Shown here: piece by piece, positions 28 through 31,224 of the stretch
Layout: every line of letters begins with the position of its first letter
Numbering within the stretch: the stretch's first letter is position 1
From: a virus
Length of the DNA stretch: 64,000 bases
Strand: one strand, 5' to 3'
IMG/VR virus record: IMGVR_UViG_3300030430_005376
Span: 32,001-96,000 of that record
Program-made: the position numbers and the translations under genes
Notes under the pieces: generated by a model
Told to the model about the DNA's origin: nothing
What the model saw: the letters and a program-made list of their open reading frames with translations, nothing else
Databases searched by the model: none

Positions 28-948
28 TCAAGATTCGTTAATTATGTGACCAGATCCTATTTTCAACTCAATCTTACACATCTTAATTTCACTCAACTCA
101 GATAATCTTGAAAAAACATCTCTTGTTAGAGACTTAATAAAATTCATGTCGTATTTAAGTGTCTCTCTTGTCTCTGAAGACCTTAGATAGAACTCACCAT
201 ATAGAAACTCATTTCTAAGCATAAAGTGGCACAGAGATAAACAGGAGTCATCTGTGTATATAAACCTTCGTGACTCATGTGTTTCTTCACGTCCGTATTC
301 ATTAGCACCTGCTAGTTCGTCATCAATCTTCTTTAAGAGTTTTCTTCTGATCTTATCGTAATATACTTTTTCTTTTTCATAAGACAACATTTCTTCTGAA
401 ACATCTTCAAAAGTTCCATTATCATAATGGGTTATAGACATTCCAATCCTTTCTAAAGATTCTTCAGATGCAGCGGAACCCATAAACATGCGAGCGAAAC
501 TATGAAAAGATCTTCCTTCAAAATGTGATCGAAGGTTATGTACTATGTAATTAACCATGTTTTCATCAATTTCTTTTCTTAGAGTTATAACATTAGGATA
601 GTTCTCAAACTCATCAGCTGCTTCTGAGAATAGATCATAAACTTTTTTAAGTGAAACTAGATTTTGAATCTCATCTCCGCGCTTTTGAAACCTGTCAGCG
701 ATCACACTCCATTCTGGCAGTAGCAAAATCATCACGTTGTTAAAGTTTGACAAATCTCTTTTTAAAGCTTCTACATGAAAATAATCATTCCTACCGTAAA
801 GCCGAGCGTAAACAATCATCGAAAGAGATGATCTATCCTGAATGTTCCAACAGTAATTAGATGCCTCATGAATCTTCTGGTACAAGGTGGTCTTGCCACT
901 CAAATCAGGACCTTCAAGAGTAATTTGATTTATTGGTGTTTTTCTCAT
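28..948 (-). CDS. dNMP (thymidylate-type) kinase fused to a minimal thymidylate synthase-fold domain (putative dCMP-modifying enzyme)
   Basis: N-terminal P-loop [10 protein letters not shown] and DR motif (IQDRSS). C-terminal TS motifs in order: SRR(226-228), SC(236), RSSE(256-259), D267, GSGHI(298-302). Confidence 0.75.
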
Positions 949-2036: not shown

Positions 2037-2391
2037 ATTTCCTCACTATGAAATTTTTTTCTATGTATTCGTGTGTCATTTCGCTTAAACCGTGCCCTGT
2101 CAAAATAGTGTAAGATCGGTTCCACTTCTTTTTTCCACCTTTTTTATCGATAACAACACCGCAAAAGTTTACCTTGTCTCCAACATACATCTCTTTTAAG
2201 TTGATCAGAACAAAAGTTAAGACGTTTCCTGGTTCAAATAAGGTGTGATCAGCATCGCTGCGAAAACTAGCTTTAATCCTGGCAAGTCTTTTTTCTGATT
2301 TTTTGATTCTCTTTTTCCTCTTTTTATTTGACAAGTGGGCGTACTTTCGCAGCGCTCGTTGAAGCTCCCCAGTTGGGGTCGTTTGATGCAT
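2026..2391 (-). CDS. hypothetical protein (true start may be TTG near 2334)
   Basis: Fills the gap between dnaE and guaC on the coding strand; the ORF-track start overlaps dnaE by 68 nt. Confidence 0.5.
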
Positions 2392-5300
2392 TAGTTAACC
2401 ATATTGTGTAGGGTTGCATAGAGTTAGGAATCTGACCCCAGACACGAAGCCAACCTGTATTGCTTTCCTCATCTGTTATCTTAACACGATAGAAAGTCTT
2501 TTTATTCTTTGTGGTCTTTTTAATTGTCTCAACAACACAGAACCAAGCAATACCTTTTTCACCTGGATCCATCTGCAGAACTGACTTGACATTAGCACTT
2601 CGAATCTTTGTCATAAGTTCGTCAGGAAATGCTAAGTCGTCACGAGTTGCAGAGCACATGTCCTGATACATTTGAAGCTTTTCAATACGTGTCCAGTCTT
2701 CAACATCTTGCGTTTCTTCAATAAGTTTCGGAAGGATAGGTTCTGCATCTTTCTTCTTTGCTTGTCGAAGTGTCATGCCAAACTTACTCTTTTTAAGCGT
2801 GTTGTAGTTCTCGATGATAATCTCGTGAAGCTGCCTGTGATTGTTAATCTCACCTTTCCACACTTCTTCGAGAACGTCGAGTGCTTCCACAGAACATAGC
2901 GCAGCGAAACCAGTCTTATTGAGTTTAGAGTGGTACCACTTTCCTTCTTCATCGTAAAGCATTTGATTTAGCGATGTGTAGGGGCGATTCTCAAAGATTT
3001 CTTTAACAGCATTTTTGCCAAGACCCTTGATAGATGTCAAAGGAGGAATGAAAGAGTTTTTATTTTCAGACCATGCCCAGTTGATACCTGACTCATTGAC
3101 GTCAGGAGTACTGACTGAATAACCCATCGCTTTAATCTCAGAGATTGCTTTTGACAAGTTCTTAGGGTTACCATTTTCAGATTCAAGAATCGTACCAAGC
3201 CAATCAGTCTCGTAGTATGTGTGAAGCCAGGCAGCATAGTAGGAACCGATTGCATAAGCAACAGCATGCGACTTGTTGAAGCCGTAAACTGAGAAGAACT
3301 CAATTCTTTCCCAAAGCTCTTGAGAAACATGTTCAGGCACGCCATTTAGATCTTTAGCACCTTTGACAAACTTAAGACGAGCAGCCTCACGCTCATCACC
3401 TTTCTTGCCCATCGTGTCAAGAGACTTCTTGACCAGCGTCTTGCGAAGCTTATCAGATTCCGCCGGTGTGAAACCGCCTAGTTTCTGTGCCAAAAGCATG
3501 AACTGCTCTTGGAAAGTAACGTGACCGAATGTTGGCCCAAGAATCTCTTTGATAATTGGGTGAGCATACTCGATCTGTTCGGCCCGGGCTTTATCCTTGA
3601 CATATTTCTTGTGAACGTTAGCTCGAAGAGGACCGGGTCGATAGATTGCCGTCAGTGCAGCGAGTTCGATGATAGATGTCGGCTTAGCATCTTCGCAGAA
3701 ACGTCGAGCGCCTTCAGCTGTGAACTGAAAGACACCTACTTTACGGCGCTGATGATAAACGTGCTCCCAGACCTTTGGATCATCTTGTTCCACGAATCGG
3801 CAGTTGAGATGCTCGTCAAACCAGTCACGAATCTCAATGAAGGTGGGTTCTTTACCTGTTTCTCTAGTGATAATTCGACGAATGCAGTTTTCAACATCCT
3901 TAAGAAGCGTAAGACCCAAGAAGTCAAACTTAATGAAACCATTATCTTCCAAGTTTCGGAAGTTCATGCCTTCTGTCCAAGGAGTCTGTAGTTCGCCTCG
4001 AACACCGATAATAGGCATTGTTTTCGCCAAGTCTTCAGCCGGGCCTATGATAACGCCACCGGCGTGACGACCAATTGATCTATTTTGCATGAAGAGCGCT
4101 TCAATGTGATCTTTGACCTTTGGATACTTTTCCATAAAGTCGCGATACTTTTTGGAGTATTCCATACAGTCTTCATGCTTGAGAACAAACACAGACTTCT
4201 CAGTGTTTTCGTCCCTCGCTTGTGCCATAACTTCATCTTGCAGCGGACCAGTCATCTTATTGACCTCAGCAAAGTCAATCTGGTAGAACTTAGCAATGTC
4301 CTTGACAAGAGACTTAAGCTTTAGCGTGTTAAAGTTGGAAACAGGAATAACTGATTCAAAACCATAAAGTTCTCTTGCGGCATTAATAAGGGCGTCGCGA
4401 TCACCTGCATCAGAGTCAATGTCAGGCCAGGATGTTCTGTGACGCCCAAGGAATCGCTCCCAAAGGAGATCGTACTTGAGCGGATCGACCTGGGTTATTC
4501 CAAGAAGGTAGTTGACTAGAGAACCACCGCCCGAACCTCGAGCAGCTCCAAAGAGAGTATGATCTGCAGCTTTGTGGAAGACTTCGTTCATGACCAAGAA
4601 GTAGTTTTCAAATCCTAAGAACTTGATATCAGCAAGTTCCATCTTGGCACGTTCAACGTACTCTTCTTTTTCATGCATTCCTTCTTTGACTAGTGCTTGC
4701 TTAACTTTCTGCGCAAGCTGTTGAAAAGCAGTCTGGTCTGGTTTATTAAAATCAGGCAACTTAACACTGGTATCAATCCAACAATCAGTACATTTATCCC
4801 AAGCGATATCATGAGTTCTCTCAATCGAATCCTTAACGGCAATTTCGTATCCCTCATAAGTGTCTTTATATTCATCGTAGTGCCTCGTAAATTCATCCCA
4901 CATCTGTTGCGCATTCTTAGGGTAGAGCTCGCACTTTAGATCTTCAAACTCTGGCAAGGGAGAAGGATCATTACCCATCCAACCTAGCTTTTTGTAAAGC
5001 TCGCGTGCTTCCCATTTGTTAGGATTGTAGTAGTGTGAGTCAGGAGTAGCGACAAGATTGAGACCTGTCATTTCTGCGTGCCGCAGTAAGTGATGGTTTA
5101 CAAGATGTTGTTGTTTAAGCCTGTTAAATTGAATCTCAAGATAAAAGTTTTCTTCACCAACAGCATCAACAAACTTATCAGATAGCTGCATAAGCTCTGC
5201 TTGAATCTCACTGTCTGACTTCTTAAGCGCATTTCCGCGCATGATTCTATTAGAGTAAATACCACCTAAACAAGCGGTAGAGACATTAAGGCCTTTGCCA

Positions 5301-5839
5301 TGTTGTTTGAGAAGATCAAAGTCAATGCGGGGATAACGATAGAATCCCTCTGTGTACGCACGTTTGATCAGAGTGAACAAATTGCCTAAACCTTCACGGT
5401 CCTGTGCAGTGATCACCAGATGATAACGTCGTTTCCATTCATCCTTGTTGACATCTACTGTCTTAGTCTCGTCTTCGTTCTCGATAACATGCCCAGCATC
5501 AGCATCTTCCTTAAGCGCCTTTTGCTTTGCAAGTGCTCGATCAATCTTTGATTGCTCATAATCTTCTTTCCAGCCTGCAAGCGAGGGAACAAAATAGAAC
5601 TCGCAACCATAAATCTGTCGATACTTTCGGCCGCTCTTCTGAATCTTGGTTGCATGCTTGTGAGCGTGTGCCAAACCGCTACCGTTTCCGTGATCAGTCA
5701 GACCCCAAGCGTCCATGCCATTTTCAAGAACAAAGTCAATGTGATCCTTAGGGTAACCTAGTCCGTCGAAGACCGAGAAACCTGTGTGACCGTGTAATCC
5801 TACAAAGCGAGTTGGCGCTTTCATGTCAAAAATGTTCAT
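2324..5839 (-). CDS. dnaE: DNA polymerase III alpha subunit (family C) with PHP domain
   Basis: PHP ligands HGH, TDHG, GCE, YHL, TAC, PDSHY; RGSGGGSLVNYLLGIT; PDIDSD; KFDFLGL; YGFNKSHA; C-terminal OB fold. Start set at ATG 5839 (AGGAG upstream) rather than the track's 5863. Confidence 0.95.
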   Translation of the reverse strand: MNIFDMKAPTRFVGLHGHTGFSVFDGLGYPKDHIDFVLENGMDAWGLTDHGNGSGLAHAHKHATKIQKSGRKYRQIYGCEFYFVPSLAGWKEDYEQSKIDRALAKQKALKEDADAGHVIENEDETKTVDVNKDEWKRRYHLVITAQDREGLGNLFTLIKRAYTEGFYRYPRIDFDLLKQHGKGLNVSTACLGGIYSNRIMRGNALKKSDSEIQAELMQLSDKFVDAVGEENFYLEIQFNRLKQQHLVNHHLLRHAEMTGLNLVATPDSHYYNPNKWEARELYKKLGWMGNDPSPLPEFEDLKCELYPKNAQQMWDEFTRHYDEYKDTYEGYEIAVKDSIERTHDIAWDKCTDCWIDTSVKLPDFNKPDQTAFQQLAQKVKQALVKEGMHEKEEYVERAKMELADIKFLGFENYFLVMNEVFHKAADHTLFGAARGSGGGSLVNYLLGITQVDPLKYDLLWERFLGRHRTSWPDIDSDAGDRDALINAARELYGFESVIPVSNFNTLKLKSLVKDIAKFYQIDFAEVNKMTGPLQDEVMAQARDENTEKSVFVLKHEDCMEYSKKYRDFMEKYPKVKDHIEALFMQNRSIGRHAGGVIIGPAEDLAKTMPIIGVRGELQTPWTEGMNFRNLEDNGFIKFDFLGLTLLKDVENCIRRIITRETGKEPTFIEIRDWFDEHLNCRFVEQDDPKVWEHVYHQRRKVGVFQFTAEGARRFCEDAKPTSIIELAALTAIYRPGPLRANVHKKYVKDKARAEQIEYAHPIIKEILGPTFGHVTFQEQFMLLAQKLGGFTPAESDKLRKTLVKKSLDTMGKKGDEREAARLKFVKGAKDLNGVPEHVSQELWERIEFFSVYGFNKSHAVAYAIGSYYAAWLHTYYETDWLGTILESENGNPKNLSKAISEIKAMGYSVSTPDVNESGINWAWSENKNSFIPPLTSIKGLGKNAVKEIFENRPYTSLNQMLYDEEGKWYHSKLNKTGFAALCSVEALDVLEEVWKGEINNHRQLHEIIIENYNTLKKSKFGMTLRQAKKKDAEPILPKLIEETQDVEDWTRIEKLQMYQDMCSATRDDLAFPDELMTKIRSANVKSVLQMDPGEKGIAWFCVVETIKKTTKNKKTFYRVKITDEESNTGWLRVWGQIPNSMQPYTIWLTNASNDPNWGASTSAAKVRPLVK

Positions 5840-5857
5840 TATACTCCTAAAAATAAA

Positions 5858-5883
5858 CCTCACACTTATTATAAAATGTGAGG
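5858..5883 (-). terminator. intrinsic terminator hairpin CCTCACA/TGTGAGG followed by TTTATTTTT; loop contains the dnaE -10 box
   Basis: 7-bp inverted repeat plus U-tract downstream of 5914..6738. Confidence 0.7.
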
Positions 5884-5913: not shown

Positions 5914-6738
5914 TTAAGCTTGGGAAGATAATGCATCTTTTAGTTTTTTTGCTTCTTCTTCACTCAAAGCACCTTTTTTGACGTTTGCAATCAGCTGATT
6001 CTTCATCTTTTCGGCAGCTTCTGTTTTTATAGTCTTTCTTCTCTTCAGTATCGCAGTTGTAAAATCCTTGTCAATTAACGGCCCTTTACGTTTTTTGCCG
6101 TTTAAGTCTGTGTACTCTTCAGAAATAAGTTCAAGATACAACCTTTTCCCTTCTTTAGTATCCATCACGGCAGCAAGATAGTCTACCATTTCATAGCGTG
6201 ACCATGATTTTACTACAAGAGTTTTTCCAGGATTTCTTGCTATGTCAGTTAGCTTCAACGGAGTATCTTTACCGCCGGTTCGGCGGAGTGACCTCAGCTT
6301 CTTTAACACACCCTCAACAGTATCTAACTGCTCAATGCTTTTTTGCAACATATTTGGGAGAAAGTTAAAAGCCCCCCACACAGCAGCTACAAGCAGTAGC
6401 GGCCCAGCAAAGCTCGCGGCGGTTTTCGCCGCCTTGAAAGCACTTTCGCTTCCCTTCTGCAACAATGTCTTTTTCAATAGTGTTGACGCTGTGCCTTCTA
6501 CGCCGCCTATTTCAGCTTGTACCCCTCTGCCGTAAGTGCCTCCAGAAGATGCTCCAGCCGCCGCGCCGCCGGACCCACCCATAGCAATTGCAAGTAATTT
6601 AGATCCCTGAAAAGATCCCAGAAGAGCTAATAATTTAGCTGTCTCTGTGGCCCCGGAAACTGTTCCAGCTCTCTTTACTTCGGCTTCACCAAGCATTTCA
6701 ACGACTAAGTGCTTTAGTTCTCTTCTCGTAATTTTCAT
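5914..6738 (-). CDS. putative internal virion protein with MKITRRE leader and Gly/Ala-rich hydrophobic segments
   Basis: Leader shared with ORFs at 61781-62851; hydrophobic stretch FAGPLLLVAAVWGAFNFL. Confidence 0.55.
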   Translation of the reverse strand: MKITRRELKHLVVEMLGEAEVKRAGTVSGATETAKLLALLGSFQGSKLLAIAMGGSGGAAAGASSGGTYGRGVQAEIGGVEGTASTLLKKTLLQKGSESAFKAAKTAASFAGPLLLVAAVWGAFNFLPNMLQKSIEQLDTVEGVLKKLRSLRRTGGKDTPLKLTDIARNPGKTLVVKSWSRYEMVDYLAAVMDTKEGKRLYLELISEEYTDLNGKKRKGPLIDKDFTTAILKRRKTIKTEAAEKMKNQLIANVKKGALSEEEAKKLKDALSSQA

Positions 6739-6759: not shown

Positions 6760-7755
6760 TTAGTAAAAGTCAGTCAAGTTTACACCTTTCTCTTTTGCCT
6801 CGTCAAGGTGAACAAGCGGATCATATCCTTCGCTTTCACGAATCTCTCTAATCGTTCTACGTATACCTTCTTCAAGTGAAATCTTGGGCTGCCAGCCTGA
6901 CATTGCTCTAAACTTTCTTGAAGACAATCGGTGGTTTCCTAAATAGTCAGTTTCAGGATGCCAGGTCAAAACATCTGAAGTCTTGCCTGTTTCTTCAAGA
7001 AGTATACTTGAGAGCAATTCCATGATCTCGCCTGTGTTCATAGGCGTCTCTGCAGCCACGTTCCAGTCGTCATTCCACAGACCTTGCTTAATGGCTGTTA
7101 AAACTGCATCGCAGTAATCATCAACATGCATGTAGTCTTTGATCTTCTCTTTATCTAAGAACATGTCAATTTCTCCACGATTGTTCAAACTTCCATATAC
7201 AGTCTTAGCTATAAGAGAGTTCATGTCACCATCACCGCCGTAAGCAAAGAGAGGTCGAACAATCATCCATCTGTTACCTGTTTGACTTTTGACAATGTCT
7301 TCGGCACATAGTTTCTGACAGCCGTAAAGAGTTGAAGGTCCTTTTGTTGAAACCTCTGTTATGTCTATTTCTTGATATTTAGCAACATCATAAATAACTG
7401 TGGTTCCCATGTAACAAACAGGTATTCCTAAACCTTTTGCTGCTCTGCAAATGTTATAAGTGCCGGCGACATTAGTCAATGTTGCTTCACTTGCGTTTAG
7501 TGCAACAACATCAGTTCCGACAACGGCTGCATTGTGAATCACAACATTGACTTTGTTTCGATAGAAAAACTCTTTCCAAGCCATAATATCATTCTGATGA
7601 ACACAAAGCTCTCCTGGCTTATGGAAAATTAATTCAACATCGTTTGGTGTGTCGAATTTTGAATCTGAAGAAACGTGTTTAAAGCCAAACTCTTGAAGCT
7701 TTCTTACAAGATTTCTACCGATGAAGCCTTTTTCACCTGTTACAAATACATTCAT
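6760..7755 (-). CDS. NAD-dependent NDP-sugar epimerase/dehydratase (extended SDR)
   Basis: TGEKGFIG (GxxGxxG), HNAA, catalytic YGCQK (YxxxK), RPLFAYG, KDYMHVDD. Confidence 0.9.
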   Translation of the reverse strand: MNVFVTGEKGFIGRNLVRKLQEFGFKHVSSDSKFDTPNDVELIFHKPGELCVHQNDIMAWKEFFYRNKVNVVIHNAAVVGTDVVALNASEATLTNVAGTYNICRAAKGLGIPVCYMGTTVIYDVAKYQEIDITEVSTKGPSTLYGCQKLCAEDIVKSQTGNRWMIVRPLFAYGGDGDMNSLIAKTVYGSLNNRGEIDMFLDKEKIKDYMHVDDYCDAVLTAIKQGLWNDDWNVAAETPMNTGEIMELLSSILLEETGKTSDVLTWHPETDYLGNHRLSSRKFRAMSGWQPKISLEEGIRRTIREIRESEGYDPLVHLDEAKEKGVNLTDFY

Positions 7756-7757
7756 TT

Positions 7758-8210
7758 TTATTCAATCTTTCCCTGATAGCGTCTGGGCAAAACTGTGTTA
7801 CCTTCGTCAATACAGTACTGAAGATATTCTTCAAGATCACTCAGCGAAGTACATACAGCTTCACCGCTAGCAGCTAGCATTAGATTGAACTGCGCGCCTT
7901 CTGGTAAGCCTGCACAAAAATAAATAATAGGCTTTTCTAGCTTATGAAAGTATCCTGCTTCAAAGATACTGCCCATGTCTTTGTTTCTAGTATTGCAAAG
8001 CATCCAGTCGCATTCTTCCATTCCACGAATGTTGCCATTGAAAACCTGATCTTGGAAGTTTACTGTTGAGTCTGGTGTGCAGAGATTTTCATCTTTTGGT
8101 GAAAAATAATCTAACCCTAAGTCGTCTAAAGTTGCTTTGATATTCTCTAGTTCTTCAAGCCACTCAGGTGAAAACCACCCACTTGCAATATAACATTTGT
8201 TCATGCTCAT
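7758..8210 (-). CDS. nucleoside 2-deoxyribosyltransferase / dNMP N-glycosidase family protein
   Basis: YIASGWF, YFSP, DMGSIFEAGY (catalytic Glu), KPII. Confidence 0.85.
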   Translation of the reverse strand: MSMNKCYIASGWFSPEWLEELENIKATLDDLGLDYFSPKDENLCTPDSTVNFQDQVFNGNIRGMEECDWMLCNTRNKDMGSIFEAGYFHKLEKPIIYFCAGLPEGAQFNLMLAASGEAVCTSLSDLEEYLQYCIDEGNTVLPRRYQGKIE

Positions 8211-9193
8211 TATCTTCTCTCCATAAATGTTTCGTAGTTATCTTTCATTTCATTAATTTCTTTCATTGTACTTTCCCAAATATCTTCAAAGACTGTTAAC
8301 GTGCCTGGATTGTTTGTACCATTAATCTCTTCCCGGCGAGCTTGGTAAATTGTGTCATCAGGGTGAAACTCAAAGATATCGTTCTTAGGTTCAGGCCAAT
8401 ACAAGTTTGTACCTCTTGAAGTAAATCCGTCACCTACCTTTACTCTAAAGGTCTTGACATAGTGCATATCAGGCTTATCGAAGTTGATAGCAGTTGAAGC
8501 TTCTGGAAGAACTCGAATAAGCTCTCTTGCCATGTAAGCTGCAAGAATATTATCAGCGGCTGGCTGAATCTGTCGGTCTTGTCGTTGACGAATAAAACCC
8601 AGCAGGTCTTTAAGATTCATGCGCATAAGATAAAAAGAAGTCATGCACTTAGGCAGAATCATACGAGCATCCATCATAGATACGTCTTTAGAATCAGTCA
8701 TGTCTGCGTAAAGTTGCTTTGAGTCCCTTACAATATCCATGTATCGACGTAAAAATTCTGGAGAGTTTTCTACTGCTTCAGGAATAACTGCGTCGTCATC
8801 ACGAAGATCCCGGTCGCCTGTACATTGCGCTGCGAAAGAACCTGCTCTGTGTCGAATAATGTGAGTAACTTCTTGGAAAGAAAGGCCACTCAACTTAAAA
8901 GTAAAACCTAAACATTCCATTGGTGTTGGAAGGGCTCTAAAGTTTAAGACATCTTCAAGATTCTGAGAAAGATCTTGCATAGAAGTAGTTGAAGGATTAG
9001 TTTCATCGTGATGATCTGCCCAAGTTGCTTTAACGTACTGCCACGCAACATTTAGAGCTTGTGATCTAGTTGGGTGATCAACAAGTTCGACGCCTAAAGC
9101 ACGAAGATTGTTAGAAAAAGTTGTCGATGGAGCTTGATCAAACTTTAGTTCCATCGGCAAAGTGACAGGTGTGAGTGACTTGTTAAGTGGCAT
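8210..9193 (-). CDS. thyX: divergent flavin-dependent thymidylate synthase (ThyX-like)
   Basis: RHRAGSFAAQCTGDR (canonical RHRxxSxxxxSxRY), DARMILP, RQRQDRQIQ. Confidence 0.75.
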   Translation of the reverse strand: MPLNKSLTPVTLPMELKFDQAPSTTFSNNLRALGVELVDHPTRSQALNVAWQYVKATWADHHDETNPSTTSMQDLSQNLEDVLNFRALPTPMECLGFTFKLSGLSFQEVTHIIRHRAGSFAAQCTGDRDLRDDDAVIPEAVENSPEFLRRYMDIVRDSKQLYADMTDSKDVSMMDARMILPKCMTSFYLMRMNLKDLLGFIRQRQDRQIQPAADNILAAYMARELIRVLPEASTAINFDKPDMHYVKTFRVKVGDGFTSRGTNLYWPEPKNDIFEFHPDDTIYQARREEINGTNNPGTLTVFEDIWESTMKEINEMKDNYETFMERR

Positions 9194-9431: not shown

Positions 9432-10334
9432 TTATACTCCTATTATTTCTTTTAATTCACTATAAAAATCAATGTTTTTGTTTTCAGAAATATGCTTGTT
9501 GTAACTTTTGATAGGTACTTTGACTTGTATTCCGTGATCAGCATACTCGATGGCATGCTTCGGTGAGTCATCAACTGCAAACTTAATTGCATTTGTGTCA
9601 TAATACTCTGAGTTCATGCACCACCTAAGTTTTTCGGGTGAAAAGTCAACCCTATCAAAAGGTAATCCAGTTGTTGTTAACCAGCTGTATGTATCATAAA
9701 ATATCTTAAGATTATTTTTAGGGCGTGCTGTCAAAAGCTGAATCCAATATCCTCTTGACCTAAGATCTTCTAGAAATGTACGAGCGTCTTCTACGATAGG
9801 CAGACACCTAAAATGCCTCTCTTGAACAAAAGATTCAAAAACTTTTTCAGGGTTAATATTTCCTGATGCTTTCAATATATCTTCGACAAAGAAGTACTGT
9901 TCACTTTCAACGTCAGCTTCAATGTCATAAACTCTGCTTAAAAACTCTGCGAAAGGAGTTCTAAATTCTGCAAGAACGTCGTCAATGTCAACTATTGCTA
10001 CTGGCTGTCCTGACCACTTTCTTGTATTGATCTTATGATCAAGCTCTAAATAAGTGTCCTTTAAACTAAATGCTAACGACACATCTTCAGGCGCTATTTC
10101 CCACAAGTTTAGCATTGACATAACATAGCGAAGAACGTCAATTGATGAATAGACTAAGTCATCCTCATCAGGCACGCCACTATCAACACGCATTTTTTCA
10201 ATCATCTTATTAATTGAATTATAAGCGTTCAAAGCTAAATCTTTACTAACTTCTCTTTTTTGACTAGTTTCAAGCTTTCCAAACTTTGCCTCGTTGTAGT
10301 TAGCTTGAAACCTCATCATTTCTATGAAATTCAC
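9432..10334 (-). CDS. degenerate all-alpha NTP-pyrophosphatase-like domain fused to a HAD 5'(3')-deoxyribonucleotidase
   Basis: C-terminal HAD motifs VDIDDV, LTARP, K, AVDDSP; N-terminal helical domain resembles the adjacent pyrophosphatase. Confidence 0.7.
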   Translation of the reverse strand: MNFIEMMRFQANYNEAKFGKLETSQKREVSKDLALNAYNSINKMIEKMRVDSGVPDEDDLVYSSIDVLRYVMSMLNLWEIAPEDVSLAFSLKDTYLELDHKINTRKWSGQPVAIVDIDDVLAEFRTPFAEFLSRVYDIEADVESEQYFFVEDILKASGNINPEKVFESFVQERHFRCLPIVEDARTFLEDLRSRGYWIQLLTARPKNNLKIFYDTYSWLTTTGLPFDRVDFSPEKLRWCMNSEYYDTNAIKFAVDDSPKHAIEYADHGIQVKVPIKSYNKHISENKNIDFYSELKEIIGV

Positions 10335-10711
10335 TAATAACCTTCCTTCAACCTATTCATTATGATCTCATGCTTCCTAACATAAGATTCATAAAGATCG
10401 TCCTCATTAAAACCTGATGCGATGAGAAGAGAGAAAAAATAATTTAATGCATCAACTATTTCTTCTAAGAACTCTTCTCTATCAGGCCCTTCGTTAAACT
10501 CAGTCATTCTGTGTGGCTTCCAATTTTTCAAGTGCTGAAGCGCTTCAAACATTTCTTCAACACCTCTCAAGGCCAAATCTCTACAGAATTGTTGAGAATT
10601 TTTCTTACTTAGATTAAGTGGCAAATCTGGATAAGATCCAGGTCGAGCTTCTCTCATTTCAGAGATAAACTCATTTCTAAGTTTAAACATTTTTTGCAGG
10701 TTGCAATTCAT
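10334..10711 (-). CDS. all-alpha dNTP pyrophosphatase (dUTPase_2 / dCTPase / MazG-like)
   Basis: EEMFEAL, NWKPH, EEIVDALNY (EExxE ... ExxD metal motifs). Confidence 0.8.
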   Translation of the reverse strand: MNCNLQKMFKLRNEFISEMREARPGSYPDLPLNLSKKNSQQFCRDLALRGVEEMFEALQHLKNWKPHRMTEFNEGPDREEFLEEIVDALNYFFSLLIASGFNEDDLYESYVRKHEIIMNRLKEGY

Positions 10712-10716
10712 GTGTT

Positions 10717-10935
10717 CTAGCTCTCTGCAGACTCACTCTGCATTCTTACAGCTTCTTGAATCATTCGTTGAATGTTATCGTCACTCTGAGACTCGTAATC
10801 TGGATCTAAGAATAGCTGACCTTCGGTTTCTACCAAAGTCATCATTCTCATGTGGTCAACCACATCTGTTCCTGTTAACATTGCAAGCTGCACTAACTGT
10901 GCGATGTGAGCAATAGTTGCGTCGCTAAGTTTCAT
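10717..10935 (-). CDS. hypothetical protein
   Basis: SD GGAG upstream; in operon. Confidence 0.7.
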   Translation of the reverse strand: MKLSDATIAHIAQLVQLAMLTGTDVVDHMRMMTLVETEGQLFLDPDYESQSDDNIQRMIQEAVRMQSESAES

Positions 10936-10944
10936 TGTTTTCTC

Positions 10945-11775
10945 CTATTTTTGAATTTCTGGTACCCAATGTGTTGTTCTGCCATCAGGAGTTTTAGTTT
11001 TAACTACATTATTATTATAAGGGTCAAGCTTTTGATTGTACACTAAAAACTTGCTTGAATACGTACCTTTTGACCCATCAGCTCCGTAGAAGCTTTTGAT
11101 GGTAGCTCCTCCGTTTTGAAAAGAAGTTCTAATGACTGATTGAATATTATCTCTCAGTGAAATTACTTCTTCGTCTGTGAGACTGTTAACAGTTCTGAGG
11201 GGTGAAACTTTTGAAAGCCAGAGGACTTCAGCCTTGATATAATTACCTACCCCTGCGACAGTCTTTTGATTCATTAATGCCTCGCAAATGGTCTTTTCAC
11301 CTCTTTTGTTTTTCTTAAAAAGTCGATTCTTAAATACATCTATGTGTATATCATGTGTAAGGGGATCAGGACCTAACTGCAGTAGCTTTTCTTGCGTTTC
11401 TTCAAAAGTCATGGCAAACTTTAGAGTACCAAAGTTTCTAGTATCTGTGTACCAAATTGAAGAGCCGTCTTCAAAATCAAACCTTACACGAGAATGTTTT
11501 TTCTCACTGTAAGACCAGTATCCTGACATTCCTAATGTGTTCCACACAAAACACTGTATTTCAGATCCACCTGGACCGAAACCGCCATAAATAAATTTAC
11601 CTTTTGATCCCCAGCCAGCGCAGTTTATGGGAAGCATAGATTTAAAGCAGTCTAATCCTTGAGGCGGCTTTTTAGTGTATCTTCCTGACAAAACCTCAAC
11701 ATTAGTTAAAATTTTATCGCTCATAAAACTGTTAATTGACTGTGCAGTAGCTGCGCACTCAGGTCCTTCTGGCAT
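10945..11775 (-). CDS. Fpg/Nei-family DNA glycosylase, Nei-like with zincless finger
   Basis: N-terminal MPEGPE (catalytic Pro; start at second ATG), LGMSG, DTRNFG, H2TH LMNQKTVAGVGNYIKAEVLW, C-terminal DPYNNNV...GRTTHWVPEIQ with no Cys. Confidence 0.9.
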   Translation of the reverse strand: MPEGPECAATAQSINSFMSDKILTNVEVLSGRYTKKPPQGLDCFKSMLPINCAGWGSKGKFIYGGFGPGGSEIQCFVWNTLGMSGYWSYSEKKHSRVRFDFEDGSSIWYTDTRNFGTLKFAMTFEETQEKLLQLGPDPLTHDIHIDVFKNRLFKKNKRGEKTICEALMNQKTVAGVGNYIKAEVLWLSKVSPLRTVNSLTDEEVISLRDNIQSVIRTSFQNGGATIKSFYGADGSKGTYSSKFLVYNQKLDPYNNNVVKTKTPDGRTTHWVPEIQK

Positions 11776-12178
11776 CTTCAAACTCCTTTAACCAGTTGTG
11801 ATAGTTTACTAAAGCTCCGTCTTTTGGTTCTACTTTTTTCCATTCCGGAGTACAAAAAATCTTGTAAGCATCTGATCCGTACTTCCCAATTCCGTAGAGC
11901 TTTGTTGGATCATCTTGCCACTCTTTTGATAGGTAATCTTTTGACATTCTGACAAGTGCTTTTGCTCGGCGCTTAGACAGGCCGAGAGGTTGTATGACTG
12001 CAGCTACTTCAGATTCGCTAGCACATGCTAAGTCTACTGGTTGGGGCCACAAGTTTAAAACTTGTCTAAAATAAGGTTCCGCTGACACTCTTTTTGTCAA
12101 GTTGCAGAATATACAGCAAACAAAAATCTTCCATGGGTCATAGTTTATTTCTTCTTGCAAAAGCCCGTAAGGAGACAT
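11759..12178 (-). CDS. MBD4-like HhH DNA glycosylase (G:T/G:U mismatch type)
   Basis: LLQEEINYDPWKIFVCCIFCNLT, LGL..RRA, LYGIGKYGSDAYKIF, YHNWL match the MBD4 glycosylase domain pattern. Confidence 0.85.
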   Translation of the reverse strand: MSPYGLLQEEINYDPWKIFVCCIFCNLTKRVSAEPYFRQVLNLWPQPVDLACASESEVAAVIQPLGLSKRRAKALVRMSKDYLSKEWQDDPTKLYGIGKYGSDAYKIFCTPEWKKVEPKDGALVNYHNWLKEFEDARRT

Positions 12179-17509: not shown

Positions 17510-17616
17510 TTTATCTACTCCTAAAGTTATTGTTTTATAGCTTTACGTAACTTTAACTAGTGGACTTTACTATGGACTTAAACTGTAACGCTTCTAAATA
17601 TCTTGCTAAACTTGAT

Positions 17617-17871
17617 TTAACTCTTATAAATAATATTTTTTAGATTTTTTATGTGAGCATCAAATTTTGCGGACTCGCTATTCACGTACTCAATTGACAT
17701 TTGAAAAGCTTTTCCGTCCGGATCTTCAAATTTAAACATAAATCGGCCACCTTTCTGAACTGATGCGTCAGAAAGCTTAAGACCCCGCATCATTAAATAT
17801 GCGGCAATAGCCAAGTCAGATGTTTGGAAGTAGTTCACATTATAATTATTTTGTCGCTTTCGATAGTTCAT
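17617..17871 (-). CDS. small conserved protein (DUF5659-like)
   Basis: FQTSDLAIAAYL..RGLKL...FMFKFED pattern. Confidence 0.55.
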   Translation of the reverse strand: MNYRKRQNNYNVNYFQTSDLAIAAYLMMRGLKLSDASVQKGGRFMFKFEDPDGKAFQMSIEYVNSESAKFDAHIKNLKNIIYKS

Positions 17872-17872
17872 G

Positions 17873-19159
17873 TTATAAGGTCTCGTTTGTTAAATAATTT
17901 GCCATAATTACGCTCCCAACTTCAGGTTTTGAAGCAGTTGTAAAAAACACGTTTGATCCAGTAATGCTGTAATCTTGAAAGGGGGCTGAAGTTATGCTTG
18001 TTGCTGGCATTTGCAACAAGCCATTTACAAAAATTGAAACTTTTCCAGCTTCAACCGGAGCGTGATTGAGTGTGAAAAGAGTGCCAGCACTTGTTCCTAA
18101 TCCTAAATACTCATTAAAGACATGATTCGGTGCACTGATAGTTATCTGCCCGGAAGATGCTGATGTCACAGTGATCGAGCCTGCATGCTTTATAAAACTA
18201 GTGCCGTCTAAGAGCTTAGTGTGAGATCCTGTTAATTCATTAACACCTAGTGAACCGGTGACACCAACACGCCCACTAAACTCTGAGCCTGATAGAGTAG
18301 CAACAATTGAGTTGTCAACTGAGATTGTAAAGTTTCCATTCGCGCCTCCATCTTGTGTTTTGATACCAGTACCTGAAGTTAGCACTCTTTCAGCGCTTAG
18401 TGAACCAGTAGCTGTCTGAACAATATAAGTTGCACCAGAATCTCCTGACCCACCTGACCCACCTGCACTAATAACTTCATCGGCCATTTTTCCGACGTAA
18501 GCAAAAGCTTTTGCGTGTGCTGGTATTTTAGATGCATTGTAATCTTGAAGGAATAAAATACCATTGTAGAAATCAACATTCCAATCAATATTGTCTAAGA
18601 GGGGTATTTCATCCCCAATACCTCCGGCGCCATCGTCTTTGTATATTTTGACAATATAAGGATTAGGTGCGTTTTGAGAAAAGAAAGGAGGTATTAACTG
18701 TACCTTTCCCAGCGTTTCGTGCACTATTTTGTTGTTGTCAAATAAGCCTGCGCCTTTATTAGGATTTGAAGAATTGGCTTGGTAGTCTGAAGGGAATACA
18801 AATTTGTATGTGTGCGGACCAGCAGTTTGACTACTCTCTCCTGCATCTTGACCTGAACCGCCGTCAGGATTTGTGCTGTTAGCATCGTAAGTTGTGCCTG
18901 TCAACGCTGTCAGTATAAAAGGAATGTACTCAACAGTTCCAGGTGCTCCGTTAGATGCACTTTGAATCGTATATAGGTCTAGGCTAGGGTTTGCAGGTAT
19001 TTCTTCGCCAAAAATTAGCGAAGTTGCTGCTTGAATGTTAGACCCTATTAACTCTTCGCCATCAGTTTTAAGATTTGAAGTGTGAGCTTTACCAAGAAGC
19101 TTCTTCTGGGCGAAAAATGTAGCAGATGTATTGGTTTTTCCTGCCATTAACCGCTCCAA
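17873..19159 (-). CDS. virion structural protein (fibre/baseplate associated)
   Basis: G/S/T-rich; C-terminal IFVNGLLQ...DYSITG module resembling the C-terminus of 15026..17509. Confidence 0.6.
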   Translation of the reverse strand: MERLMAGKTNTSATFFAQKKLLGKAHTSNLKTDGEELIGSNIQAATSLIFGEEIPANPSLDLYTIQSASNGAPGTVEYIPFILTALTGTTYDANSTNPDGGSGQDAGESSQTAGPHTYKFVFPSDYQANSSNPNKGAGLFDNNKIVHETLGKVQLIPPFFSQNAPNPYIVKIYKDDGAGGIGDEIPLLDNIDWNVDFYNGILFLQDYNASKIPAHAKAFAYVGKMADEVISAGGSGGSGDSGATYIVQTATGSLSAERVLTSGTGIKTQDGGANGNFTISVDNSIVATLSGSEFSGRVGVTGSLGVNELTGSHTKLLDGTSFIKHAGSITVTSASSGQITISAPNHVFNEYLGLGTSAGTLFTLNHAPVEAGKVSIFVNGLLQMPATSITSAPFQDYSITGSNVFFTTASKPEVGSVIMANYLTNETL

Positions 19160-22100: not shown

Positions 22101-22938
22101 TCCAACCGTTTCTTTGATTGTCGGTACTTACTACAAATTGACCTGTCCTGTGCTTGAAAGAATTAAACGGGTTGCCATTTGAAAAAGTACCAGACGTAGG
22201 GGAAGAAAAAAAGTTAAATCCTGAGCCGTCTGAATTTAAGTGAGATCCTGTCCCCAGGCCTGACGTTCCACTTCCAATCATCACAGTAGTTAAGTCTATT
22301 TCTTTAATTGTGGAACCGTTCACGTTCAATCTAAGGACACCTGTATCTCCATCGCCGAAAGAAAATGCAGGAAAATTCTGAACTCCTGAGCCTTGACTGT
22401 TTGCAGCTATATCAGAATTTAAAACACCGCTAATGTGTGTTGCACCTGAAAAAACACCTAGTCTAATATTGTTGCTACTGGTTGTGACTGTGTATGAGCC
22501 ATTTACATCAACGCTTGAACCTAAACCTGCACTTGAACCTACAGTAGCATAAGCAGGCACAGCAGAAGATTGATCATTTGAAGAACCAAAAGAAAGAAGT
22601 GCAGTGGTTCCTGTCTGAAGTGAATTTAAATTATCGAGTCCAGGCCCTGGCGCAGGAGCTAACGCTTTTAAGACTTCATTAAACCTGTCAATAGAAACTC
22701 CAATCAGTGTTTCTGTCGTAAAATCAGTAAAAAGCCCATCCGTATAATCACCATCCTCAGCTGAGCCTATGGTTGAACCGCCTGTAGTTGATGCAGCAAT
22801 TGTAAACGAACCTGAATCTTCAGTAATGGTAACGTTTGAGCCTGCGACTAAAGAACCAGACAAAAAGCTTCCGTCACCAGCTGATACTTGGATAGTTCCT
22901 AACGAGCCTGTCGACTCTGTAACTCTTATTGCTGTCAT
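19147..22938 (-). CDS. large virion structural protein with internal duplication (tail fibre/spike-like)
   Basis: 1263 aa, S/G/T/N-rich; two copies of NQRNGWNYARVxH...TTNxxEWVNDNNxDAL. Confidence 0.65.
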   Translation of the reverse strand: MTAIRVTESTGSLGTIQVSAGDGSFLSGSLVAGSNVTITEDSGSFTIAASTTGGSTIGSAEDGDYTDGLFTDFTTETLIGVSIDRFNEVLKALAPAPGPGLDNLNSLQTGTTALLSFGSSNDQSSAVPAYATVGSSAGLGSSVDVNGSYTVTTSSNNIRLGVFSGATHISGVLNSDIAANSQGSGVQNFPAFSFGDGDTGVLRLNVNGSTIKEIDLTTVMIGSGTSGLGTGSHLNSDGSGFNFFSSPTSGTFSNGNPFNSFKHRTGQFVVSTDNQRNGWNYARVQHVRSGSTTTTNFIEWVNDNNNDALAASGNSLSFEGSGSVHLSGVEYFQSGSAQYKVRATNAYKYVHDNNNITFTTSNSAEESSSPSFSISSQAKPTIGGSEDHNKILHVTGSGNVTSNYFISGALTAGINVTHPLKSNLSNGGQSTVTGILMYNLSNTSTNTLETFRRENFRIISGAYDTQASLVDAGNVWDSTIHMTASNGAHTNGLQFYNTKLFSPINTLRSGDFRSTSDGGKLDNSPAENPNYSGVSGQRTFYRWFRNTTGSTKQDFSIEINGSGTTIVPASTSLNSSRIRVFVKFPNNGTRETGWLDLATEFVLDSYTDNDGAHTANGSLSFDNSLNATNIVTLGTVGVSNNEYIGIRIEADASWTGFINQIEVTFGAGTGTITPIPDLDDIDCNDSGADANLSFGSSKSITGYTSVGDSAGIESAVDLNGLYEITSNSNNLRRGVFALDTIIEGDLNEDVSANSPDFVANAFSDANSGSLVLEVNGSDIHTVELTGSFNLVGAGSPGSGTGTSFTGNSGFFDLSTWKPAEFDNEVPHFLEIQRTGKYRVHTANQRNGWNYARVKHIGTWGTRTTNYVEWVNDNNADALSSAGNSLSIFGDDSFSFISGVKYFNSPSGSISTRISNLYKNVYSDSNSAISFSNLTNATGAKVIQSGSGLTSTKSTSAANDSLQTLSTSTDSQDTILHATGTINFSQSKSLPGSSLTTAHDCAGAMTFVHPLKSNLTTPTQTTTNLLVWTPSDTSNANTDEQFTAEANRLVSGSYSAQADISGGSNNWNSQQSMNDQVSYAEHATGLLVYDTYLISPKAAGSSGDFRNHDEGGGIESPAGNVNYSTLTNSTRDFFRGFLNNTTNDLARVTITLYGDAALVGKTGPNAAALGSNKNIFVELKIPGKTEFLDLGKPSAGAGNISAGDGCLFGDLNSNIDGSGETNVCTFNGQTVNGTTSGAEYFVIKISASENWTGYLDRIQVAWSG

Positions 22939-26694: not shown

Positions 26695-26702
26695 TAGCCC
26701 CT

Positions 26703-28079
26703 CTATTTGCTTGCTGTTATTTCTTTCCATTTAGATTTTAACATGTCTTTTGTGCCTGTATTATGAGAATCATAAATATCTACTAATGACATTTGACTAG
26801 GGTCGTCTATTATTTCTATCTTAGATCTTGCTGTGTCAATTTTAACAGGAAAAAGAATTCCATCTTTTCCAGCACGATTTTTTGCTACAAACAGACGACC
26901 AGAACCAGTAGCTTTTTCTGTTGCCTTTCTCGATAAAGAAACAACAATGTCGGCGACCATGGCCTTGCCATAAGCTTCTGACATGTTTTCGAGACCAACT
27001 ACTTCGGAGTTAGAAGCTTCCCGGTTTGCTTGTGATGCTGTCCAAACAGGAATGTTCATCTCCATTGCAAGGTTTCTCAACTCTTCATAAACAAGCTTAA
27101 GCTCATGTCGCAAAGAATCGAATTGTCTAGTTGATCTCATAATATCAGCATAGTCAATTACGACGAGTGACGGAATAAAATCTTTCATTGATAGTTTTTC
27201 AATGTGATTTCTAATCGTCACTATGCTGGCAGAACCTGTTGGGTACTGCTTTATAATTAGGCGACCGTAGTCGTTTTCCTTATAATGACTTAAAACATTT
27301 TCTTTGTTGTCAACAACATCTGAGGACGGTATTCCTGTTAAATTACTATCGTATCTAATGCCTACAGCTGTTTCAGAAAGCTCAAAAGTGTAATGAACAA
27401 CATTCTTGCCACGCTTAAGCGCCTCAGCACCCATTGCTACTAGCCAATGAGATTTACCAACACCTGTAGGCGCAACGATGACTCCAATTTCCCCTCTAGA
27501 AAGCCCACCGTTAAATACGTCCTTTGCATCTAAGTGATGCATTCCTGTTGGACAACAAACTCTATTTATTTTAGCAAATCTAGCTTCATGATCTTTGAAA
27601 AAGTCATGACCAACTGAAGAACCTGACCCTTTAGAAACAGCATCTTTCATGATATTTAGCACAGCTTCATAGTTTTCACCTTGAATTGCCTTTACACTGT
27701 CTTCGAGAGCTTGCTGAAGTACTTGCTTTTTGCAAAAATCTAAACTTTTTTCTTTTACGTATTCTAAGTCTCCTAAGTCAGGTGAGGACTTAACTCTTGA
27801 GAGATACTCAATAACCTGTCCTTTGAGAATTATGTCATCACCTTCAGTAAGCTCATCTTTGATAATTGATACCAACATGCTCAAGGTTGGAAAACTTTTG
27901 TATTTTAAGTAAAATCCAAAAAATCTGTCACATAAGTACTGAAGATATTTAAGTTCAAAATACTCATGTGTCATTACTTCAACCATTTGAGTTGCCCACT
28001 GATGGTCTCTCAAAAGAGATTGAAATATTTTTTCTTGAAAGTCTTTTCCGTACTTAGAAAAGTGATTTTCATAACTCAT
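26703..28079 (-). CDS. replicative DNA helicase (DnaB/T4 gp41-like)
   Basis: APTGVGKS Walker A, FELSE, VIDYAD, TASQANR, KNRAG. Confidence 0.9.
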   Translation of the reverse strand: MSYENHFSKYGKDFQEKIFQSLLRDHQWATQMVEVMTHEYFELKYLQYLCDRFFGFYLKYKSFPTLSMLVSIIKDELTEGDDIILKGQVIEYLSRVKSSPDLGDLEYVKEKSLDFCKKQVLQQALEDSVKAIQGENYEAVLNIMKDAVSKGSGSSVGHDFFKDHEARFAKINRVCCPTGMHHLDAKDVFNGGLSRGEIGVIVAPTGVGKSHWLVAMGAEALKRGKNVVHYTFELSETAVGIRYDSNLTGIPSSDVVDNKENVLSHYKENDYGRLIIKQYPTGSASIVTIRNHIEKLSMKDFIPSLVVIDYADIMRSTRQFDSLRHELKLVYEELRNLAMEMNIPVWTASQANREASNSEVVGLENMSEAYGKAMVADIVVSLSRKATEKATGSGRLFVAKNRAGKDGILFPVKIDTARSKIEIIDDPSQMSLVDIYDSHNTGTKDMLKSKWKEITASK

Positions 28080-31128: not shown

Positions 31129-31141
31129 TGTTTTCTCCTTT

Positions 31142-31182
31142 AATGTTTAATGTGCAATGTTTAATGTGCAATGTTTAATTGC
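31142..31182 (-). repeat. about 3 x 14-bp tandem repeat (ATTAAACATTGCAC on minus strand) forming the ssb 5' UTR
   Basis: Two exact units at 31142-31155 and 31156-31169, plus a near copy at 31170-31182. Confidence 0.9.
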
Positions 31183-31188
31183 TTAAGC

Positions 31189-31217
31189 ATTATACTAAAG
31201 GAGTGATGTTTGTACAA
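31189..31217 (-). promoter_or_regulatory. sigma70-type promoter TTGTAC-N17-TATAAT for ssb
   Basis: Exact spacing, directly upstream of the repeat leader. Confidence 0.75.
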
Positions 31218-31224
31218 AATTTAA

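Follow-up and report, generated by a model that had tools for sequence, protein, structure and literature searches.

A kinase fused to a minimal thymidylate-synthase fold

We analysed a 64,000-nucleotide stretch of virus DNA (the window), which comprises bases 32,001 to 96,000 of the IMG/VR record IMGVR_UViG_3300030430_005376. The record has 137,660 bases and a CheckV completeness estimate of 53%. A gene at the start of the window encodes a 306-residue protein in which a nucleotide kinase is joined to a strongly reduced thymidylate synthase (TS) fold. The gene and its parts are as follows.

28..948, minus strand: whole gene, fusion of a kinase and a minimal TS fold, 306 amino acids (open reading frame (ORF) and translation)
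514..948, minus strand: N-terminal P-loop nucleotide kinase domain, residues 1-145, of the dTMP-kinase / deoxynucleoside-kinase type (PF02223, PHROG 761, family-profile match to YorR, VIA)
31..513, minus strand: C-terminal minimal TS-fold domain, residues 146-306, 161 amino acids (Foldseek, VIA, hhalign, language-model neighbours)
945..948, minus strand: ATGA overlap between the stop of a GMP-reductase gene and the start of the fusion gene (read from the sequence and the ORF ends)

The ATGA overlap suggests that the fusion gene is translationally coupled to the GMP-reductase gene upstream. The called ORFs of the record all lie on a single strand, with one exception. The source is a large (giant) uncultured marine phage: neither the window DNA nor, by tblastn, the fusion protein had a match among GenBank phages, the DNA polymerase III (Pol III) alpha subunit was at most 30% identical to that of any cultured phage, and the window stretch was found only in marine or seawater metagenomes, in Logan contigs from many studies.

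The C-terminal half adopts the TS fold

An earlier note on this DNA, made from the sequence alone, had proposed a nucleotide kinase fused to a stripped-down TS fold. Structure prediction and structural searches bore this out for both halves. The AlphaFold2 (AF2) model of the fusion protein had a pLDDT of 92.1 and a pTM of 0.88. In the PDB, Foldseek ranked first AfhB (9iqu, E = 2e-6), a deoxycytidine monophosphate (dCMP) hydroxylase from phage HY126; after it came 9iqc, thymidylate synthases, the T4 dCMP hydroxymethylase and MilA. When residues 145-306 were compared by VIA-align, members of the TS superfamily gave Z scores of 10.5-11.8 over 142-153 aligned residues, with a root-mean-square deviation (rmsd) of 3.1-3.6. 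The scores for MilA (11.8), a ThyA (11.2) and AfhB (10.9) are effectively ties. A VIA search of 48,161 representative chains, made independently of Foldseek, covered this region with TS-superfamily chains only. The domain thus shows the alpha/beta architecture of TS, including its central sheet and helix J.

Profile comparisons gave the same assignment. A profile built from 59 diverse relatives of the fusion protein (25-78% identity), the set used below for all conservation counts, matched a profile of 22 TS homologues of the RB69 gp48 type with 95.4% probability (E = 1.9e-8). With the C-terminal domain alone, matched by hhalign against gp48-type enzymes together with Escherichia coli ThyA and T4 gp42, this rose to 97.3% (E = 2.1e-11). 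Against single sequences, hhalign gave 93% and 2.8e-7 for T4 gp42, 90% and 1.6e-6 for a gp48-type enzyme, and 55% and 1.2e-4 for E. coli ThyA. By these measures the domain is nearer to the phage dCMP-modifying enzymes (gp42, gp48) than to ThyA. The language-model neighbours of the fusion protein carry PF00303, the TS family. In a search of PDB entries by sequence, only the kinase half gave matches.

Active-site residues are retained, with aspartate at the base-specificity position

The alignments placed the following residues in register with those of known TS-family active sites.

265..273, minus strand: S226-R227-R228, equivalent to ThyA S125-R126-R127, the phosphate-binding Arg pair that comes from the partner subunit in TS dimers (R227 in 59/59 relatives, R228 in 58/59)
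241..243, minus strand: Cys236, equivalent to the catalytic Cys146 of ThyA and Cys148 of T4 gp42 (Cys in 58/59)
178..183, minus strand: R256-S257, equivalent to ThyA R166-S167 (each in 59/59)
172..174, minus strand: Glu259, equivalent to ThyA D169, gp42 D171 and N186 of the gp48 type (alignment map)
148..150, minus strand: Asp267, equivalent to ThyA Asn177 and T4 gp42 Asp179, the base-specificity residue, in its cytosine-type state (Asp in 59/59 relatives and in 65/65 viral loci)
46..54, minus strand: S299-G300-H301, equivalent to ThyA D205-T206-H207 (S-A-H in the gp48 type; H216 in gp42; Ser in 54/59, His in 57/59)
361..363, minus strand: Tyr196, the probable equivalent of ThyA Tyr94, with lower confidence (hhalign mact 0.2; Tyr in 57/59)

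The ORF and the residues named in the earlier note (SRR at 226-228, Cys236, R256-S257, Asp267 eleven residues after R256, and S299-G300-H301) were thus where it had put them. Its reading that the catalytic Cys, the RS and SRR pairs and the His are retained held across the family, each being kept in 57-59 of the 59 relatives; the Cys was also kept in 64 of 65 viral loci. The alignment of Asp267 with N177 of ThyA and D179 of gp42, on which its substrate argument turned, was likewise in register and invariant. Taken with the fold and profile matches, this degree of conservation goes well past anything expected by chance. Asp at this position is an established determinant of dCMP specificity, as seen in T4 gp42, MilA, the N177D mutant of ThyA and the 5-hydroxy-dCMP (5hodCMP) synthases (PMC13326640).

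The invariance of the SRR pair may reflect a TS-type dimer with shared active sites. In TS dimers, each active site borrows R126' and R127' from the partner subunit.

The cofactor-binding part of the fold is missing

While the nucleotide side of the active site is retained, the domain has no counterpart to the region in which TS enzymes bind folate, or 5-hydroxy-dCMP synthases flavin. The distance from the first strand (residues 166-176) to Y196 is about 20 residues, compared to about 58 in ThyA and gp48, which corresponds to the absence of an internal stretch of about 38 residues (ThyA ~37-93, containing E58, W80 and W83). The loop from SRR to Cys, which the earlier note had already described as short, showed a 16-residue alignment gap relative to the gp48-type enzymes, and the spacing between R228 and C236 is 7 residues, compared to 18 in ThyA. 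The chain ends 5 residues past H301, as opposed to 57 residues past the equivalent His in ThyA, 30 in gp42 and 14 in gp48. None of the folate-binding elements (the E58 helix, the W80/W83 segment and the C-terminal lid past H207) was found.

The earlier note had gone further and described the N-terminal folate-binding region as apparently missing. This was right for the cofactor segment (ThyA ~37-93) and not for what precedes it, as the domain keeps both the N-terminal helix of TS and its first strand. Its suggestion that the donor to C5 may be something other than methylenetetrahydrofolate (methylene-THF) fits these data: with the cofactor-holding part of the fold gone, methylene-THF is unlikely to be bound in the manner of ThyA.

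The N-terminal half is a nucleotide or nucleoside kinase

The kinase half carries the expected motifs of its fold: a P-loop of the form GxxxxGK[ST], a DR(Y/F/S) motif and an Arg-rich LID.

889..912, minus strand: P-loop GPDLSGKT, residues 13-20 (G13, P14, D15, G18 and K19 invariant in an alignment of close relatives, A1)
829..837, minus strand: D38-R39-S40, the DR(Y/F/S) motif of the dTMP-kinase / deoxynucleoside-kinase fold (aligns with DRF of YorR)
673..693, minus strand: LID-like RFQKRGD, residues 86-92 (R86, R90, G91 and D92 invariant in A1; aligns with RVRGDE of YorR)

PF02223 matched this domain with E = 1e-5 and 25.8 bits, just below its 27-bit cut-off, and TIGR00041 gave 29.9 bits against a cut-off of 83.25. 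As both scores are below their cut-offs, the domain is kin to the kinase fold and not an assured thymidylate kinase, although PHROG 761, annotated as 'thymidylate kinase', matched it with 8.6e-10. A search of PDB sequences with the family profile found YorR of the SPbeta prophage (1.4e-6), and in this match the P-loops, DR motifs and RGDE LID regions line up. VIA comparisons of the AF2 kinase domain also gave YorR (Z = 13.0 over 139 residues, 21% identity), followed by a Mycoplasma deoxyadenosine kinase (Z = 11.5) and dTMP kinases (Z of about 11). YorR (PDB 2axp, 3kb2) and the dTMP kinases are stand-alone proteins, in contrast to the fused kinase described here. To our knowledge the substrate of YorR is not established, so this match does not fix the substrate of the fused domain. 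Residues 1-145 are therefore best described as a predicted intact nucleotide or nucleoside kinase whose substrate the sequence leaves unfixed. Since its nearest structures include deoxynucleoside kinases besides dTMP kinases, the fused kinase could act before the TS-like domain rather than after it.

Relation to known TS-family enzymes

RB69 gp48 and DLP3 gp80 are TS homologues that make 5-hydroxy-dCMP from O2 and a loosely bound flavin, and the strong incorporation of the modified nucleoside that they support requires a deoxynucleoside monophosphate (dNMP) kinase (Lee et al., PMC13326640). These enzymes and AfhB (9iqu, 9iqc) share with the domain studied here the TS fold (VIA Z = 10.7-10.9; hhalign 95-97%), the Cys, the R-S and SRR pairs, the Asp at the N177 position, an S-A-H type motif and a short C-terminus. 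As in our case, no folate-type chemistry is expected of them and they work with a nucleotide kinase. They differ in being longer (217-238 residues, compared to 161), and in that their dNMP kinases are separate proteins, whereas here the kinase is fused and is of the dTMP-kinase / YorR type rather than the T4 gp1 type. They are also flavin-dependent. No arabinose or glycosyltransferase cluster was found around the fusion gene.

In this group Asn at the D169 position, beside N177D and L143E, marks 5hodCMP synthase activity (PMC13326640). Among the 59 relatives, the D169 position is occupied by Asn in 34, by Asp in 18 and by Glu in 4, and the window protein has Glu (Glu259). A tree of 65 viral copies required at least 7 changes between Asn and Asp/Glu at residue 259, and the Glu clade that contains the window protein was nested inside an Asn clade with 98% support. 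The L143 position cannot be aligned, as the loop is 16 residues shorter; by counting, the third residue ahead of the Cys is D233, at a position that varies among the relatives and is polar. ThyX-like, nucleoside 2-deoxyribosyltransferase-like and NT5C genes lay nearer to the fusion gene in loci of the Asp/Glu type, but because gene context and residue 259 both follow the tree, we do not read this association as functional. Given that the D169N signature is unstable in the family and that nothing here corresponds to the cofactor side of the pocket in gp48, we do not class the domain with the 5-hydroxy-dCMP synthases. They are the nearest known enzymes that work on what is probably the same substrate.

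T4 gp42 (1b5d, 6l18) was the best match to a single-sequence profile and gave a VIA Z score of 9.1. Its D179, Cys148 and acidic D171 correspond to D267, C236 and E259. It follows a similar logic, in that a hydroxymethylase and a dNMP kinase (gp1) together feed a modified deoxycytidine triphosphate (dCTP) to the phage polymerase. However, gp42 has 246 residues and a full methylene-THF site including E60, a region that is absent here, and gp42 and gp1 are two proteins rather than one chain. The domain belongs neither with gp42 nor with the 5-hydroxy-dCMP synthases, although these are its closest known kin. MilA, a CMP hydroxymethylase (5b6e, 5jnh), was the best VIA match (Z = 11.8, 147 residues, rmsd 3.4), with ThyA and AfhB within one Z unit of it. 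MilA has Asp at the specificity position (PMC13326640). Unlike the fusion, it acts on a ribonucleotide, CMP, has 318 residues, is folate-dependent and belongs to a Streptomyces antibiotic pathway.

The ThyA enzymes of E. coli and Lactobacillus casei share with the domain the core sheet and helices, Cys146, R166-S167, R126-R127, H207 and probably Y94. They differ in having Asn177 in place of Asp, and their E58, W80, W83, L143 loop and 57 C-terminal residues have no counterpart; E. coli ThyA was also the weakest of the three profile matches. A precedent for a fusion is offered by the bifunctional dihydrofolate reductase (DHFR)-TS of protozoa and plants, in which TS forms the C-terminal part of a chain that it shares with the enzyme of an adjacent step, and Foldseek aligned both domains to it loosely. 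There the partner is DHFR and not a kinase, and the TS is full-length and specific for deoxyuridine monophosphate (dUMP). No protein with the same two-domain arrangement was found in BFVD (all TMq ≤0.37), a search for longer relatives using a related stand-alone kinase gave none, and a search of the literature on kinase-TS fusions and on phage pterin dehydratases gave nothing relevant.

Distribution and gene neighbourhood

The fusion is widespread. We found 597 relatives of the whole protein at 90% clustering, nearly all of 295-325 amino acids. On one of them, P0077, PF27365 is listed as a family. With the TS-like domain as the query, 111 clusters were obtained at 50% identity, none of them longer than 329 amino acids and none a canonical TS. 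Of eight short relatives (160-230 amino acids), five begin inside the kinase domain and look truncated, while the remaining three (P0242, P0268 and P0271) begin at the domain border and may stand alone. In the loci L076-L087 we found the reverse situation, stand-alone kinases of 175-193 amino acids with no TS domain.

IMG/VR contained 67 full-length fusion loci, on contigs of up to 284 kb. The genes found within 10 kb of the fusion gene in these 67 viral loci were as follows.

Pol III alpha: 67/67 loci
Thymidine kinase: 55/67
dCMP deaminase (zinc): 52/67
Short-chain dehydrogenase/reductase (SDR) NDP-sugar epimerase/dehydratase: 44/67
Fe/Mn superoxide dismutase (SOD)-like protein: 42/67
DHH phosphoesterase: 37/67
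Nucleoside 2-deoxyribosyltransferase-family protein: 33/67
ThyX-like protein: 28/67
Pterin-4a-carbinolamine dehydratase: 19/67
NT5C: 19/67
dUTPase_2: 18/67
GMP reductase: 13/67
ThyA, gp42 or gp48 homologue: 0/67

The constant neighbour in the window is:

2324..5863, minus strand: DNA polymerase III alpha (DnaE-type)

In 30 of 65 loci the ORF directly upstream of the fusion gene was that for Pol III alpha, and the ORF directly downstream was an SDR epimerase in 25 and a thymidine kinase in 16. The fusion gene is thus a fixed part of a replication and nucleotide module.

This module is built from bacterial-type parts. Apart from Pol III alpha it includes the large chain of a ribonucleotide reductase, of class II type and with a TSCPD domain at its C-terminus (window 24169..26730, minus strand), beside which lie DnaB, two 5'-3' exonuclease genes (28076..29044, and 17539..18336 of the record's own numbering), RecA and a gp32-like single-stranded DNA-binding protein. 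A 274-residue protein that starts MKITRRELKHLVVEM is encoded between the replication genes (window 5914..6738, minus strand).

Several neighbours are candidates for editing the nucleotide pool. These are a 150-residue nucleoside 2-deoxyribosyltransferase-family protein (window 7758..8210, minus strand), an NT5C-type nucleotidase with an N-terminal extension, which clusters with the gene next to it (9432..10334, minus strand), and a 125-residue, fragment-like dUTPase_2 (10334..10711, minus strand), an all-alpha NTP pyrophosphatase that could act as a dCTPase or dUTPase. Adjacent genes for base-excision glycosylases, one of the Fpg/Nei family (278 residues) and a short HhH-GPD protein (139 residues), lie at 10945..12178 (minus strand), and were near the fusion gene in 9/67 and 5/67 loci, respectively. 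The Fe/Mn SOD-like protein (own record 27672..28376; 15672-16376 of locus L004, minus strand) matched Sod_Fe_C with 5.4e-17, far below the NCBIfam cut-offs, and is an odd constant companion for a nucleotide module.

Genes for NDP-sugar metabolism are also present. SDR epimerase/dehydratases are encoded at 6760..7755 of the window (minus strand) and at 30922..31965 of the record, directly downstream of the fusion gene, the latter with its best NCBIfam likeness to 4-epimerases of the TviC/GalE type. A small cupin (own record 30470..30934) was assigned to a PHROG annotated as 'cysteine dioxygenase' and is perhaps a sugar epimerase, and a phosphomannomutase lies at 10328..11176 of the record. As no glycosyltransferase was recognised alongside them, a link between these sugar genes and the DNA is not supported.

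Thymidylate supply

The earlier note had argued that a ThyX encoded nearby frees the TS-like domain from the synthesis of thymidine monophosphate (dTMP). The gene that it pointed to is not a canonical ThyX:

8210..9193, minus strand: divergent ThyX paralogue, 327 amino acids (PF02511, E = 2.3e-19; TIGR02170, 1.3e-11, far under its cut-off)

Two Thy1-family genes, one canonical and one of the long form, were present in the records of eight of nine relatives. The canonical ThyX proteins of relatives (L088-L092) have 222-267 residues, match with E values of 1e-36 to 1e-52 and carry the motif RHRTWSYNEIS. The long, divergent form (in the window, and in relatives L093-L097) has 320-351 residues, carries 'IRHRAGSFAAQCTGDR' and has a C-terminal extension of about 90 residues. 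Only the long form was seen in the present record, which is partial. An AF2 model of the divergent form, made from 6 sequences, was poor (pLDDT 47.6). It lies a few kb from the fusion gene and could belong to the same pyrimidine pathway. No PF00303 gene was found in the whole 137.7-kb record, nor in 4 relatives. Thus, the conclusion of the earlier note is likely to be true, although through a different gene, as judged from the gene content of the relatives: the lineage most likely makes its dTMP with its canonical ThyX.

Proposed function and alternatives

What does the fusion protein do? Like its hundreds of relatives, the protein probably produces an altered form of a cytosine nucleotide, by a chemistry that cannot be read from sequence. 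We see about an even chance that the fusion couples a kinase to an enzyme that modifies dCMP at C5. From the two established folds, the conserved residue equivalences and the missing cofactor region, we infer a scheme that covers dimer formation, catalysis, the substrate and product, the order in which the two domains act, and entry of the product into DNA. The retained nucleotide half and nucleophile, the fixed Asp and the lost cofactor half together point to a dimeric enzyme that would work through addition of Cys236 to C6 and a loosely held donor. The phosphate of dCMP would be bound by R256, S257 and the R227/R228 pair of the partner subunit, its sugar side by His301, and the N3/N4 edge of the cytosine by Asp267. 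Attack of Cys236 on C6, as in other TS-family enzymes, would render C5 nucleophilic, and C5 would then acquire a substituent whose donor does not sit in a folate pocket like that of ThyA, since there is none. Most likely this substituent would be oxygen derived from O2 with the help of a reduced cofactor, either loosely bound or diffusible, much as in the 5-hydroxy-dCMP synthases that depend on flavin; transfer of a one-carbon unit would be less likely. The kinase would either raise the product to the diphosphate, for a host NDP kinase and then the phage Pol III, or supply dCMP from deoxycytidine. This scheme is supported by the intact catalytic motifs of the kinase and by the precedents of T4 gp42 with gp1 and of RB69 gp48 with a dNMP kinase. 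The likely supply of dTMP from elsewhere and the fixed place of the gene in the replication and nucleotide module also speak for it.

A number of observations weigh against this scheme. The missing internal stretch leaves no room for a known TS-family cofactor site, the stretch that 5hodCMP synthases keep invariant (gp48 ~58-115) has no counterpart even in a low-stringency alignment, and the chain stops 5 residues past H301. The domain is missed by PF00303 (Thymidylat_synt), with no match at E values up to 1. The window protein lacks the D169N signature, at a position that flips between Asn, Asp and Glu among close relatives. No DNA glycosyltransferase family was recognised by Pfam or PHROGs among about 90 ORFs of the record and in related loci, where an unrecognised one is possible, and a dUTPase_2-type pyrophosphatase, a possible excluder of dCTP, was near the gene in only 18 loci. 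Finally, one copy, at 10001-10870 of locus L073 (IMGVR_UViG_3300035145_003993), is degenerate: Cys236 is replaced by Asn, R256 by Lys, S257 by Gln and H301 by Tyr, while Asp267 is kept. The loss of these active-site residues suggests that the activity is dispensable.

The degenerate copy is also an argument that the TS-like domain might be a non-catalytic binder of dCMP or another deoxypyrimidine nucleotide, either an allosteric sensor or a scaffold that docks the kinase to the replisome or to a dNTP-synthesis complex. There the domain and Asp267 survive without the Cys and three further active-site residues, the entire cofactor-binding part of the fold is gone throughout the family, and the gene is always near Pol III alpha. 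We nevertheless think such a role unlikely, as the copy in L073 is a single long-branch case and the Cys has been kept in 58/59 relatives and 64/65 loci over deep divergence, together with Y196 and H301, which mere binding would not need. At the other extreme, an ordinary small thymidylate synthase that converts dUMP to dTMP and is fused to a thymidylate kinase would account for the TS fold with its Cys, RS and SRR pairs and His, and for a dTMP-kinase-like partner; there is even a language-model neighbour cluster of 437-residue viral proteins named 'thymidylate kinase / thymidylate synthase' (Atlas score 0.91), which we treat as a lead only. However, this is very improbable given the Asp instead of Asn at the N177 position in all 59 relatives, the lack of a folate-binding segment and a C-terminal lid, the presence of ThyX in relatives, and the failure of PF00303 to recognise the domain.

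Two further alternatives keep the enzyme active on dCMP. Thymidylate could be made by a route through cytosine, in which 5-methyl- or 5-hydroxymethyl-dCMP passes to the zinc dCMP deaminase, the resulting dTMP or dUMP derivative passes to the kinase, and the DNA stays unmodified. The best family matches of the kinase are to dTMP kinase, and dCMP deaminase and thymidine kinase are frequent neighbours (52 and 55 of the 67 loci), but T4 likewise has a dCMP deaminase beside its hydroxymethylcytosine pathway, so the deaminase is not diagnostic. Methyl or hydroxymethyl transfer would also need a one-carbon cofactor site, which is absent, and the canonical ThyX of the relatives already makes dTMP from dUMP, the product of the deaminase; we consider this route quite unlikely. 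A cofactor-independent reaction through addition of the Cys to C6, such as hydrolytic deamination via a 5,6-dihydro adduct, exchange of the C5 proton, or glycosidic or other cleavage of dCMP that depletes the host pool, would explain why the nucleotide site and Cys are kept while every cofactor element is lost, and would sit well beside pool-clearing neighbours such as the nucleoside 2-deoxyribosyltransferase-family protein, the NT5C nucleotidase and the DHH phosphoesterase. Against it, most loci already encode a dedicated zinc deaminase, a kinase partner would be hard to explain for a degradative reaction, and we know of no TS-fold enzyme with such a cofactor-free physiological role. We give it little credence.

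If the fusion is indeed a C5-modifying enzyme coupled to a kinase, its cofactor might represent a new regime for the family. Having neither a folate nor a flavin pocket of its own, the domain would rely on O2 and a diffusible reduced cofactor such as a tetrahydropterin to attach oxygen, or some other group, to dCMP at C5 once the Cys has activated it. We regard this as speculative and quite improbable. A pterin-4a-carbinolamine dehydratase gene is present in the record (22209..22622; 10209-10622 of locus L004, minus strand), about 9.4 kb downstream of the fusion gene (PF01329, E = 3.8e-15), and the dehydratase was found in 35 of the 45 relatives' records searched (4 of 5 large and 31 of 40 fragmentary ones). 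A biopterin-dependent aromatic-amino-acid hydroxylase (PF00351) was found in none of the five large records, one of which is 100% complete, so that the dehydratase looks like an orphan recycling enzyme of the replication and nucleotide module, with its usual partner missing. The sole large record without the dehydratase is the 211-kb record of L073, which has the degenerate fusion protein, but this coincidence is a single case in one syntenic lineage and is not evidence of a link.

Significance

Almost every known hypermodification of pyrimidines in phage DNA starts with a TS homologue, and the family has recently been shown to have switched its cofactor once, from folate to flavin and O2. Here, the catalytic core of TS has shrunk to about 160 residues, retains none of the known cofactor elements and is joined to a kinase, yet the nucleophile and the cytosine-type Asp are conserved. 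Should a pterin prove to be the cofactor, a metal-free nucleotide hydroxylase that depends on pterin would provide an abundant and widespread lineage of marine giant phages with a non-canonical cytosine. An inactive domain would instead be a plain example of how an enzyme fold can become a sensor of nucleotides. If it is active, it would define the minimal machinery for the activation of dCMP at C5, and a common group of uncultured marine giant phages would have modified cytosine, with effects on the sequencing and quantification of their DNA and on its resistance to restriction.

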